Below, in pieces: positions 1,146-21,640 of a DNA stretch of 22,889 nt. Numbering within the stretch: the first letter of the stretch is position 1; each line of letters begins with the position of its first letter. The DNA is from Chiloscyllium plagiosum (Eukaryota). A program made the position numbers and the translations under genes. The notes beneath the pieces were generated by a model that was given only the letters and a program-made list of their open reading frames with translations, had not been told where the DNA came from and did no database searches. The DNA lies in the NCBI RefSeq assembly GCF_004010195.1, contig NC_057756.1, positions 6,267,094 to 6,289,982 of the forward strand, given 5' to 3'.

Positions 1146-1292
1146 CAAAGTTTGTGCGAAGATTTGTAGCTCGGGTGCTCGTTGTTGTGGTTCTGTTCGC
1201 CGAGCTGGAAGTTTTTGTTGCAAACGATGATGTCGCCTAGCCAGGGGACAAAACGTTTGCAGCAAAAACTTCCAGCTCGGTGAACAGAACCA
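1146..1292. mobile_element. Short fold-back Penelope-like terminus insertion (family B)
   Basis: Inverted arms 1184-1226 and 1254-1296 (41/43). The loop holds a partial hammerhead (ATGATGTCGCCTAGCCAGGGGACAAAACG). One-sided 38-nt tail at 1146-1183. 17-bp direct repeat CAACATACTTTTATGCT at 1129-1145 and 1293-1309. Confidence 0.85.
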
Positions 1293-1597
1293 CAACATAC
1301 TTTTATGCTTCCACCCCGCCACCCCAAAGTCATATTAGTCACAGATTCAATATTAGATTTTCTGTCCTAATAGTACTCGCCAGGTTTTCATATTGCTACA
1401 ATGTGAGATTGGACATGACATTGACAGGATGCAGAGCTGGTCTGAGAAGCGGCAGATGGAACTCGAAACATTCAAGCTCCTTATTTTCTCATTCTCTTGC
1501 CGTGGATATAATTGCTTACTGTCTTTACGTTTTCCTTAGCTTTTTTGATGAATTCGACTGCTCGCAAGGTCAGGTTGAATATTTGCAAAGTTCAGCA

Positions 1598-1678
1598 GCA
1601 TCTGCCTGGCCTGCTGTGTTTTTCCAGCATCACATTTTTCAACTCTGGTTTCCAGCATCTGCAGTCCTCACTTTCTCC
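1598..1678 (+). mobile_element. 81-bp Penelope-like 3' terminus insertion (family A)
   Basis: Near-identical to 9811-9887. 18-bp direct repeat TATTTGCAAAGTTCAGCA at 1580-1597 and 1679-1696. Confidence 0.85.
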
Positions 1679-1800
1679 TATTTGCAAAGTTCAGCAAAGC
1701 CAAGTTGTCTCCTCGACTGCAATATTCAGCAAAGCATTAAATTTAGCAAAGCATTCTCTTAAAGATTTCATAGTAAATGTTAATTTTGTTAATTTTCGAT

Positions 1801-2500
1801 TACAGTGTGGAAGAACAGTGGAGTCTTCTGGTCCATGTACATACATCCCTCAAAGTTGCCACCCAAGTTGATAGGGTTGTTAAGAAGGACCATGGTGTGT
1901 TGGCTTTCATTAACAGGGGGACTGAGTTTAACAGCTGCGCAGTTTTTGCTGCAGCTCTATAAAACCCTGGTTAGCCCACATTTGGAATATTGTGTCCAGT
2001 TCTGATCACCTCATTATAGGAAGGATGCAGATGCTTTAGAGAGGGAGCAGAGGAAATTTATTAGGTGGCTGTCTGGTTTTGAGGGCTTGCCTTATGGAGA
2101 GAGGTCGAGTGAGCTCGGACTTTTCATGCTAGAGAGAAGAACGAAGAGAGATGGTTTGATCGAAGGTAATAAGAGGCATAGATAGAATAGATAGAGAAAT
2201 TTTCCCAGTGCAGAAATGGCTGTCACGAGGGGTCATAATTTTAAGGTGATTGGAGGAAGGTATAGGGGAAATGTTAGATGTAGGTTCTTTACGCAGAGAG
2301 CAGTTGATGCATGGAAAACACTGCTGCGGTGGTAGTAGAGTCAGAGACATTAGGGACATTTAAGCGACTACTGGACAAGCTAATGGACAGCAGTAAATTG
2401 AGGGGTGTGTAGGTTAGACTGATTTTCGATTAAGATAAATGCTCGGCACAACATCATGGGCTGAAGGGCCTGTACTGCGCTGCACTGTTCTACGTTCTAT
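1801..2500 (+). mobile_element. 5'-truncated CR1 LINE (ORF2 C-terminus and 3' UTR), degenerate
   Basis: LYKTLVSPHLEYCVQF motif. Tail GGGCTGAAGGGCCTGTACTGCGCTGCACTGTTCTACGTTCTAT. Confidence 0.9.
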
Positions 2501-2549
2501 CAATGTCCTAACGCATGTAATGAAGAAATATCAATGAAAGACTTTCACT

Positions 2550-18112: not shown

Positions 18113-18969
18113 AACTCTATCCATGTCTCTGAAGTGGCCACAACATCGAAATCCCAGTTACTAACCAATGCCGCAAGTTCACCCACCTTATTCTGAATGT
18201 TTCTGGCATTGAAGTAGACACACTTCAAATTACCTTCCTGCTTGCTGGTGCACTCTTGTGACCTTGAAACCTTATTACTCACCTCCCTACTCTCAACCTC
18301 ATGGACACTGGAACTACAATTTAAGTTCCCATGCCCCTGCTGAATTAGTTTACTCTCCCTAAGAACATTAGCAAATTTCACCCCCAAGATATTGGTACCC
18401 CTCTAGTTCAGGTGTAGACTATCCTGTTTGTAGAGGACCCCCCTATTCCAGAATGATCCCCAATTATTCAGGTATCCGAAACCCTCCCTCCTGCATCATT
18501 CCTGTAGTCACATGTTCAACTCCTGTCTCCTCTCCCTATTCCTTGCCTCGCTAACATGTGGCACAGGTAACAAACCAGAGATAACAACTCTGTTTGTTCT
18601 TGCTCTAAGTTTCTACCCAACTCCCTGAATTTCTGCCTTAAATCCACATCCTTTTTCCTATATCGTTAGTGCCTATGTGGACCACGACTTGGGGCTGCTC
18701 CCACTCCAGGATCCCAAAAACGCGATGTGAGACATCACGAATCCTGGTCTCTGGGACGCAACGCACCAACCGCGAGTCTCTCTCTTTCCCACAGAACCTC
18801 CTAGATGTCTGCCTAACAACGGAGTCTCAAATGACTAATGCTCTGCTCCTCTCCCCCCTTCCTTCCTTAGAAACAGGGAGACTCTGTGCCAAAGACCTGT
18901 ACCCCATGGCTTACCCCTGGTTAGTCATCCCCCTGCCCCACCAGTATCGAAAAAGGTATACTTGTTATT

Positions 18970-20904
18970 TTATGATAATAACATTCTGGGATACACTCAG
19001 ATTTTTGATTCAATTGCTTTAGTTTCATCTGTGTTGTCATTCAACTGCTTTCTCTAAACTAAAAACACCCACTTAGTCCTGCATTTGTTCTTGTTTTTTT
19101 GTCAACTTATTTGATCAAACTTGGTCTTTGATGAGCTTCAAATTCCTAATCTTTACTCTTTGATTTCTCTTCCTATTTCCACCTTGGCTTTGTAACCTTG
19201 TCACCACAGAATCAGGAAACATCCCAGGAAATACTTCTTATAGGACCTCAGTTGCCTAAGTTTCCATTGGCTTTTCAAACACAGTCGGAATCATTCCCTC
19301 TTGTGATCCAGCTATATTAATACCAAGGACAAAGTGTATTTCTGGAAGCCATAATTTCTCTATTACTCCTACCAACACTTCACTACTTTTTGCTGGACTC
19401 TTCAACCTCACTTTATATAATAGAACACTTCTATCCTGCCAATGAGTTCCACTTATTACATCTCTGGCAACACTCCATCTGAATTAATCAGCTCCTCATC
19501 CCTCATTGAGGAAGTTACTCCAGTATCTGTTAAAATTTTTATTTGTTTGTTCCTCCTGACATACATGAGTAAACCTTACTCATGCAAGCAAATTCTTTAG
19601 ATATCTGGCACTTTCTTCACAAGCAACCCCTAATCAGGTTGTACTTTTCCACAGCTTTTTACTCCACTGTGCTTTCTTTTACTACCTCAGTAAAACTCAC
19701 GGACTTATTGTTTGCTCATACTCGTTTTCTCAGTGTTTTCTCTCAACCACCAACAATGCAACTTCATGTAGCCTACTGTATGCAGTGAAAACACCAGAGC
19801 TTTTCCACTTCTCTTACCCCCCTCATGGGTTTCCTCTTTAGCCTGTGGTAAACTATCTTTACCAAGATCTCCTTTTCCCTTACCACCTGAGGATTTTTCT
19901 TACCCACAACTTTTATCCTTCACAGATTGAAATTGATGCCAGAAGCCAAGTGTTGATTTATGAATTATCTAATGATCATTTGCTATTTCTGTTGCTGATT
20001 TTGTAGTCTCTGGTCTTCCAAGCATTCTCGCTACTTCAGGAAGTGAATTTTTGAACTTCTCTAAAATAATTGTCCCTCTAAGAATGTCATATCAATACCC
20101 TCTTCAATCTCTCTTCAATACCTTCATTCACCTGTCAAAATTACTGGGTTTGATCCTTTCAAACTCAATGTATATTTGACTAGGATCCCTCCTTAGATTC
20201 CTAAAACATTGTCTGTAGTCTTCTGCTACTAGTTCATAAGCACTTAAGATAGTATTTTTCACCTTATTATAACTCCCCAGATTCCTCCTCTGATAGTGAC
20301 ACAAATACTTCACAAGATGTACCCAACCAATTTAGAATTAACAACACTGACAAGGTCACTGGCCATATCATTCATTTAGCCACTTTCTCAAAATGAAATG
20401 AAAAATGCTTCTGCATCCTTCTTGCATCACTTGGGCATATTTAAATAGATCCCCACCAGGCCTTGGGATACATCGAGATTGCTCTCCATCACGGTCCTCA
20501 TCACTACTTCAACTTTTCATATCTCCCTCTGCCATTTTAAGTCAACTTTGAACTTTCAGTTCCAGTGTCCAAAGTTCAAAAACTCTTTCTCCTTTTCTTC
20601 TCCTCAGCTAGCCTTTCCTTTTCTTTTTCTTTGATTTCAATCGTATGTTAAACCATTTCATTTTCTTTTCATTTTAAAGCTGCTTAATTTGATCTTTAGC
20701 CATGTCCCAAGACTCTGATGGCATTCCTGGGAATTGTAAATGCTGTACGATTGCCACAATTATTTCCCCTTTCCTCACAGATACGGGCAATCCCAGCTCC
20801 AGCTTGTTTGTCAATTCCAAAAGCTTTGTCTTGCTCACTTTCTATAAATCTCCCAAAGTGACTTCTTCCACCCCCAGGAAACTCTCAGTGGCTGAATGAG
20901 CCAT
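18970..20904 (-). pseudogene. Gypsy gag (SCAN-like domain, Zn knuckle) and protease remnant
   Basis: AYELVAEDYRQCFRNLRRDPSQIYIEFERIKPSNFDR; LWCFHC; KILTDTGVTS; PGMFPDSVVTR; SECIPECYY. Confidence 0.85.
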
Positions 20905-21005
20905 TATTACACAAGGCAATACTTATTCAAACCAACCAAATGTAACAACTGCAGTAAAAGACACCAACAGTGCCCATGCACTGCCTTTGACTCAGCAGTT
21001 CAGAA

Positions 21006-21142
21006 AGCATCCAGGGAACAGGAGATTCGACGTTTCGGGCACAGGCCCTTCTTCCTGAAGAAGGGCCTGTGCCCGAAACGTCGAATCTCCTGTTCCCTGG
21101 ATGCTGCCTGACCTGCTGTGCTGTTCCAGCAATAAAGTTTCA
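21006..21142 (+). mobile_element. Fold-back Penelope-like terminus insertion (family A)
   Basis: Perfect 49-bp arms at 21006-21054 and 21057-21105 with a 2-nt spacer. 75-bp direct repeat at 20918-20992 and 21143-21217 (1 mismatch). Confidence 0.9.
21055..21082 (+). ncRNA. Minimal hammerhead ribozyme motif
   Basis: CTGAAGA-A-GGGC-CTGT-GCCC-GAAA-C-GTC. Confidence 0.65.
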
Positions 21143-21277
21143 AATACTTATTCAAACCAACCAAATGTAACAACTGCAGTAAAAGACACCAACACTGCCC
21201 ATGCACTGCCTTTGACTTCAGTATTCCTAAACCCGATTTGGAACTTGAGATTTCAATCCCAGCAAGAGCTCTAAATT

Positions 21278-21640
21278 TGTTATGGACTAGATCAAATCCT
21301 TTCCAAAAATATAGAAGCATGTTTAGATACTAACACTTTTGTATTTTAAAAGTCAGTGTAAAGTGTGCATTCCAGACGTGATTCAATTGGTCAAACTACT
21401 GAATGTTAAGCAAAACACACTTTATTTTTGCAAAGTTAAAAATCACACAACACCAGGTTATAGTGCAACAGGTTCATTTGGAAGTACTAGCTTTCGGAGC
21501 ACTGCTCCTCTATCAAGTAGTTGTTTTTACACTTATTTTTACATGACAGTTAAAACACAGACAAAATGAAAAAAAAAAGAATTGGCTCAATAAGGACTAT
21601 CGAAATGATTAACAAAATATTAGTAACCAAATGAACTACC
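21278..21640 (-). repeat. Truncated 5' LTR of the Gmr1-like element
   Basis: TGTTA edge next to the PBS, minus-strand AATAAA at 21421-21426, homology to 150-400. Confidence 0.7.
21431..21523 (-). mobile_element. Short Penelope-like terminus (family C) with degenerate hammerhead
   Basis: Minus strand TTGATAGA-GGAGC-AGT-GCTCC-GAAA-GCTA...TATAACCTGGTGTTGTGTGATTTTTAAC. It interrupts the LTR homology, with imperfect ACACTT(T)ATTTTT on both sides. Confidence 0.6.

Follow-up and report, generated by a model that had tools for sequence, protein, structure and literature searches.

Why do several short insertions of Penelope-like elements (PLEs) in one stretch of shark DNA break beside a hammerhead ribozyme? 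The stretch, which we call the window, is 22,889 nt of Chiloscyllium plagiosum contig NC_057756.1 (GCF_004010195.1; positions 6,267,094-6,289,982), and it is rich in repeats. A first-pass annotation of the sequence described eight insertions consisting of Penelope-type ends, from three families (here A, B, and C), and all eight are present. We found that copies of family A across the genome share a 5' end at a single base just ahead of the hammerhead. We lean towards the view that the short copies, or stubs, are run-off complementary DNAs (cDNAs): reverse transcriptase (RT) would initiate internally at the tail and copy to the 5' end of the RNA, which is probably the transcription start, giving a product that resembles strong-stop DNA.

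The genome-wide measurements use the coordinates of one long family A copy, whose parts are:

8842-9888, plus strand: long family A insertion with a 16-bp target-site duplication (TSD), the reference copy for the mapped reads
8842-9108, 9109-9564, and 9565-9888: its inverted arm without a tail, a gap of Ns, and its sense arm
9756-9762, plus strand: TCATTCC, initiator-like, with A+1 at 9758; helix I begins with this A, and genome-wide 5' ends peak at it
9762-9789, plus strand: minimal type I hammerhead (CUGAAGA, an extra A, a 4-bp helix II, and GAAA-CG-UC with a palindromic helix III)
after 9789, plus strand: cut site of the hammerhead, as predicted from sequence
9850-9888, plus strand: tail, found on a single arm; across the genome, 3' ends fall at 9887/9888

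We mapped four public runs onto positions 9565-9905 of this copy: three DNA runs, taken as contigs (X1, X5, and X10, the last from a second organism), and the raw reads of a polyA single-cell RNA library (X21). This test of 5' ends covers family A only, and its counts, which come from 24 of the 1375 loose-end entries, are to be read as minima. Loose 5' ends lie at 9758 in at least 599, 492, and 659 contigs (X1, X5, and X10) and in at least 240 reads (X21). An even spread over 324 positions would put at most 46, 32, 47, and 12 at each position, assuming that every partly mapped record has a loose 5' end, and the peak exceeds this by factors of at least 13, 15, 14, and 21. In the three DNA runs, the flanks at 9758 are unrelated, AT-rich, and long (median 255 nt, agreement 0.31). 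A second set of ends lies at 9767 (at least 609, 458, and 580 contigs in X1, X5, and X10). The loose letters there finish with ATTCCTGAT in both X1 and X10, and with ATTCATGAT in X5; because of the ATTCCTGAT ending, we interpret it as the same start in a subfamily with a CUGAUGA box. Depth at 9752 is 0.11, 0.10, 0.24, and 0.19 of the depth at 9766 (X1, X5, X10, and X21), and the 3' ends pile up at 9887/9888.

The peak is 32 nt upstream of the predicted cut, and no 5' ends at 9790 were among the 24 entries listed of 1375, so self-cleavage does not explain the breaks; the remark in the first-pass annotation that the break lies 5' of the core, where self-cleavage would not put it, was correct for family A. 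We therefore rejected cleavage at GUC as the source of the 5' ends, as RNA depth rises only 5% across the predicted cut (X21). We also rejected a splice acceptor at 9758, as the preceding bases are CTC and not AG.

The initiator consensus is YYANWYY, with TCAKTY as its strict form, and TCATTCC at 9756-9762 places A+1 at exactly 9758. Just 6 of the 324 reference positions match YYANWYY, and 2 match TCAKTY. The 4-nt strand of helix I begins with this same A9758.

As a control, we scanned metagenome contigs for the core pattern and obtained at least 121 loci (L001-L121) from related PLEs of other animals. Their flanking DNA is unrelated, and in about 20 of them a related protein's GIY-YIG end lies upstream. 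Taking the five largest families (101 of 127 hits), merging groups from the same locus, and dropping 5 entries with under 100 nt of flank left 90 copies. The element extends upstream of the CUGANGA box by up to 12 nt in 11 of them, by 13-30 nt in 16, by 31-60 nt in 12, and by more than 60 nt in 51. The ends that are defined by TSDs spread from -3 to beyond -200 (relative to C3 of the box, as are all break positions below), and an initiator A at -4 was found in 0 of 124 hits. Extents also pile up at 300 nt, which we rejected as a boundary: it is the flank limit of loci L081-L121. Although the comparison is loose, the same core without a peak implies that breaks at the edge of the fold are not dictated by the fold alone. 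New here are the 5' peak, resolved to one base in each of two organisms, its match to an initiator, and this negative control; a literature search that left out subscription papers and Repbase notes found no description of a single-base 5' end of PLE stubs.

Copies in the control families stop on the 3' side at two places, about 50-70 nt and about 100-120 nt past the cut site, which is a similar kind of tail in distant relatives. The downstream pattern of family A had 0 matches in viral and metagenome contigs, and the core pattern had 0 matches in viral contigs. Two other observations came from the mapped runs. A few contigs join 9756, 9763, or 9767 to 9858 on opposite strands, which gives an inverted piece of about 31 nt, possibly a tail-only inverted arm. 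And the loose letters of X21 at 9758 resemble (13 of 20, one letter out of register, by eye) what we take to be the end of a common template-switch primer; they could hint at RNA 5' ends or stem from one expressed locus, and we did not use them as evidence.

The other insertions of the window are:

1146-1292, minus strand: family B fold-back insertion; 17-bp TSD (1129-1145 and 1293-1309)
1146-1226, minus strand: its tailed arm, starting at C15.2
1226-1296, plus strand: its tail-less arm, starting within CUGANGA
1598-1678, plus strand: family A stub with a tail and no hammerhead; 18-bp TSD; 5' end 49 nt downstream of C3
6450-6576, minus strand: family A stub with an intact core (6573-6546) and a tail; 5-bp TSD (CACAG); 5' end at reference position 9759
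15208-15427, minus strand: family A fold-back of the CUGAUGA subfamily; 17-bp TSD; the tailed arm (minus) starts at +5 and the tail-less arm (plus) at 15332, equivalent to A9758
16287-16400, plus strand: family B stub with an intact core (16328-16361) and no tail; starts about 41 nt upstream of C3
20993-21142, plus strand: family A hairpin without a tail (the 21006 insertion); flanked by 75-bp direct repeats (20918-20992 and 21143-21217) with one mismatch
21430-21528, minus strand: family C stub (the 21431 insertion) with a decayed box (TTGATAG), a 5-bp helix II, and an AGCU palindrome; TSD of 8 bp exact by script, or about 12 bp with one indel by eye

Four of these eight insertions clearly break at the CUGANGA box, one probably does, and three do not. 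The clear cases are 6450, which breaks at -3; 15208, whose two arms break at -4 and +5; 21006, with one arm broken at -3 and the other at +2; and 1146, one arm of which breaks at +2. The probable case is 21431, at roughly -7 to -12; its box is decayed, and as a single copy it has no alignment partner. The misses are 1598 (+49), 16287 (-41), and 8842, whose junction is hidden in the gap at 9109-9564 and must lie 197 nt or more upstream of the box. The claim of the first-pass annotation that five of the eight break near the box thus stands as four clear cases and a probable one, except that the tailed arm of 1146 breaks at +30, 4 nt before the cut bond. Its claim that the clustering extends across three families holds genome-wide for family A, while families B and C were seen only in the window (two copies and one copy). 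Some individual entries also changed: the hairpin put at 21006 begins at 20993, has no tail, and lies between 75-bp repeats, and a scan found no TSD for the 16287 insertion.

The 75-bp duplication around the hairpin at 20993-21142 far exceeds the 5- to 18-bp TSDs of the other copies in the window, and the plus arm of this hairpin matches the 6450 copy without a single difference across 92 nt (100% identity). In the 131-nt unit that runs from A9758 to the 3' end, the tail is predicted to pair with 9797-9814 (a stem within 9797-9873); the 1598 stub breaks inside this stem and begins with 4-5 extra bases that match it.

The annotation was also right that these PLE ends carry minimal hammerheads. 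A descriptor found exact cores at 6573 (minus strand), 9762, 16328, and 21055 (plus strand) and a core with one mismatch at 15336 (plus strand); across 100 shuffles, it averaged 0.0 matches without mismatches and 0.19 with one. It did not detect the family C box (21431) at up to 2 mismatches. The features of a minimal type I hammerhead are present: CUGANGA, helix II, GAAA, a palindrome at 15.2/16.2 (CG in families A and B, GC in C), UH, and a short helix I. Of the two checks suggested for the fold, the covariance-model search gave nothing, as Rfam returned no hammerhead in the window at E ≤ 10 and just sub-threshold matches of microRNAs to the hairpins. The covariation check was positive. In 74 related contexts from metagenome contigs, pairs 1-4 of helix I are Watson-Crick in 68, 63, 52, and 41, compared to maxima of 61, 43, 33, and 32 in shuffles that ignore relatedness, and pairs 5-6 are at or below chance. 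Covariation over four pairs supports the fold as a real motif. In fold predictions, the monomer shows helix II alone, the family A units are not clearly better than shuffles (z = -1.9 and -0.25), and cofolding did not return the dimeric hammerhead.

Which elements do these ends come from? One feature that was missed in the original inventory bears on this:

5170-6305, plus strand: decayed end of a PLE open reading frame (ORF) with its 3' untranslated region (UTR), a relative of family A; stops 29 nt before CUGANGA

Its ORF fragment (5170-6094) matches proteins of cartilaginous fish (sharks and rays) with RT and PF26215 domains, and it is laid out as a post-RT region, a CX4CX2C-type linker, and a GIY-YIG region, all decayed. 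The linker reads CHRRNC and then a stop, where the homolog P0008 has CHRRNCKTC. The 3' UTR is 72% identical over 170 nt to 9565-9733, upstream of the family A hammerhead. Five ORF pieces had no match in Pfam, and the GIY-YIG piece retrieved no homologs. Members of the Neptune clade have a CX2-5CxxC linker between the RT and the endonuclease (EN), according to the accessible text of PMC8557442. Given the linker and the shared 3' UTR, we assign family A, from sequence and by the linker criterion rather than a tree, as the end of a Neptune-type PLE. The ORF fragment ends 25 nt before the start site of the stubs and lacks exactly the stub part; this is a single case, and a later deletion is possible.

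An ORF with RT and GIY-YIG parts is linked to the terminal repeat for family A only; within the window, no ORF belongs to families B or C. In the family B copy at 16287, an ATG at 16334 lies within the core, and its frame is open through the tail as seen in the 1146 copy. The Poseidon element PAc of the anole has the same layout, with the ATG in the core and the tail in frame, in the part of PMC11167929 that we could consult; family B is a candidate Poseidon-type element.

The elements and their architecture (tails, inverted arms, minimal hammerheads) were already known. In the portions available to us, PMC8557442 and PMC3846280 describe EN-containing PLEs (Neptune, Penelope/Poseidon) as 5'-truncated copies with an adjacent inverted copy and a tail of 30-40 bp on one side. 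We see the same one-sided tail with a head-to-head inverted arm in 1146, 8842, and 15208, and the TSDs and the GIY-YIG region upstream of the hammerhead are shared as well. These papers describe the 5' truncation as variable, whereas family A has a single-base mode at the 5' edge of the hammerhead. The metazoan PLE hammerheads of Cervera and De la Pena 2014 (PMC4209133) share CUGANGA, the extra nucleotide before helix II, the palindromic 15.2-16.2, and a short helix I. Most of them are solo motifs, ascribed to truncated PLEs, and some are close pairs on opposite strands; the accessible text does not map the start positions of the solo copies, as we do here.

We propose that RT initiates internally, at the tail of the RNA, and copies until it runs off a fixed 5' end that lies about 131 nt further upstream. 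RNA polymerase II would start at A9758, from an initiator just ahead of the hammerhead, and priming at the tail copy in the 5' pseudo-long terminal repeat (pLTR) would yield a strong-stop-like cDNA. If the jump to the RNA 3' end fails, the run-off cDNA may integrate. An RNA beginning at A9758 and primed at its first tail would give a 131-nt run-off cDNA, which is the unit that we observe. In the shark lineage, the hammerhead would be a passenger at the 5' end of the RNA.

The biochemistry of PAc makes this plausible. In vitro, as far as the accessible text of PMC11167929 (Frangieh et al. 2024) goes, PAc RT initiates internally on a pLTR-ORF junction RNA at two sites that bound the tail, the lengths of its products track the template's 5' end, both DNA strands are extended, and about 60 nt of RNA is needed downstream of the start sites. 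Insertion is unchanged in hammerhead mutants. PAc thus resembles our elements in having two 3' ends bounding the tail, with hammerhead cleavage not needed; that text takes up neither genomic 5' ends nor the idea that stubs stem from a run-off product. Also, Drosophila Penelope has an internal promoter, and its transcripts begin within the upstream pLTR (PMC2377424, in part).

The hairpins would need one more step. In 21006, a run-off cDNA may have snapped back on itself: its junction fits a cDNA ending at 9759, folding back through three base pairs, and copying itself, which predicts 56 of 59 nt. In 15208 and 1146, the run-off cDNA would have been linked to another cDNA, one that used the opposite target strand as primer and began at the tail-less start site; the tail-less arm extends further 5' than the tailed arm in both, which fits the joining of two cDNAs. 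Alternatively, Arkhipova et al. attribute such palindromes, in the text available, to self-priming on an antisense template.

Several points weigh against run-off from a transcription start. Because A9758 is both the initiator A and the edge of helix I, the sequence cannot separate a start from a fold edge. By eye, we did not see a downstream promoter element (DPE) of the type ACGT at the canonical spacing, as it is 2 nt off, and X21, as a polyA single-cell library, has no listed place where many molecules begin. The peak counts are incomplete, with 1351 loose-end entries outside those listed; the ends at 9758 and 9767 amount to only 8-9% of the partly mapped contigs; upstream depth is under-counted, as other subfamilies diverge from our single reference; and in X5 at least 166 contigs have loose ends at 9754 with element-like letters, a divergence effect. 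The control was measured by a method other than read mapping, on short-read contigs chosen for an exact core. Family B breaks at -41, +2, and +30 and not at one base. We saw no full-length family A element, and the PAc work was done in vitro on a Poseidon element, while family A is Neptune-type (PMC11167929, in part).

The strongest rival, which we nevertheless consider unlikely, is that the 131-nt unit is a non-autonomous, retrozyme-like family of its own: its tandem transcripts would be cleaved as dimers and circularised, and one lap of RT from the tail would give monomers that end at 9758. Consistent with this, joints from 9887-9889 back to 9755-9759 occur in at least 86, 25, and 60 contigs (X1, X5, and X10), with the intervening sequence undefined, and related motifs show covariation across 4 bp of helix I. 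PLE-derived retrozymes are also described in vertebrates, including one chondrichthyan, in the available part of 10.64898/2026.07.22.740005. However, the joints may be separate copies on one contig, and none of 3870 mapped reads of the polyA RNA library show them among the entries listed. The short copies do resemble animal non-LTR retrozymes, which are short, non-coding, hammerhead-bearing, pLTR-related, and dispersed as monomers, but those are defined by tandem arrays and circular RNA (PMC7229834 and 10.64898/2026.07.22.740005, both in part), while the window has dispersed, TSD-flanked monomers and hairpins and no tandem unit. The 81-nt stub at 1598 is 97% identical to 9811-9888 of the long insertion, so one subfamily gives both short and long insertions. 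The stubs also lack the RNA beyond the start sites that PAc needs, minimal hammerheads cleave weakly as far as the available sources describe them, and 8 of 9 Xenopus dimers did not cleave (10.64898/2026.07.22.740005, in part). The non-autonomous small-RNA system of the first-pass annotation thus keeps some chance but is not needed, and we consider a separate ribozyme-delimited family to be less likely than run-off cDNAs. The other alternatives are weaker than this one.

A little less probable again is that the template acquires its 5' end by processing, with 5'-to-3' trimming of a longer RNA halting at a helix I that is protected by a protein-bound hammerhead. A9758 is at exactly the right base of helix I for this, and the PAc hammerhead cleaves only with protein added (PMC11167929, accessible text). 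But related PLEs have the same fold and no peak (11 of 90), the monomer is predicted to form helix II alone, and the initiator match, at 6 of 324 positions, would be a coincidence.

A stall or template switch of RT at the ribozyme fold, which the annotation had suggested, is improbable. Some arms do end within the core (+2, +5, and +30), 27 of the 90 control copies end up to 30 nt upstream of the box, and RNA depth is still rising between 9769 and 9800. But RT would meet the fold at its 3' side (9793), and the peak is at the far edge, beyond the whole structure; also, helix II has only 4 bp, the predicted family A folds barely differ from shuffles, and control elements with the same core have no peak.

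Steep but ordinary 5' truncation with a mapping edge, in which the hammerhead lies 100-130 nt from the 3' end, a range where many truncated copies would end in any case, and subfamily divergence in the upstream part sharpens the step, fits the dense TSD-defined control ends at -3 to -29 and the loose ends at 9754, 9845, and 9851, which are divergence artefacts, but it is very improbable given the long unrelated flanks at 9758 in three DNA runs and the window copies with TSDs that start at 9758-9759.

Elsewhere in the window, 10301-14495 holds a tandem duplication of about 2.1 kb with 96-98% identity, which may be genuine or an artefact of assembly. For 12200-19800, a search for RNA data containing the sequence listed no match, which says nothing about its expression.

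In LTR retroelements, priming near the 5' end of the RNA yields minus-strand strong-stop DNA, a short run-off cDNA that needs a template jump. By analogy, the product proposed here would also be a short run-off cDNA, but it would be primed by nicked target DNA and so could integrate. A more general and still tentative idea is that PLEs as a group make target-primed strong-stop cDNA from the tail of the 5' pLTR to the capped start of the RNA, close in front of the hammerhead, that this cDNA has to jump to the RNA 3' end before a full element can be built, and that the shark stubs are failed jumps that integrated. The single-base 5' end shared by many young copies would be a genomic record of the template's end, and it makes a general model directly testable in two ways, by mapping caps and by run-off in vitro. 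As far as the accessible texts go, no mechanism is evident for regenerating the pLTR (PMC2377424), and the function of the hammerhead in PLEs is called unclear (PMC8557442). If the strong-stop idea is true, it would explain how pLTRs are regenerated, why partial tandems occur, and why animal genomes hold so many solo hammerheads. For the genomes studied here, the shared 5' end also argues that solo hammerheads arise as a side product of integration rather than forming an element defined by its ribozyme.

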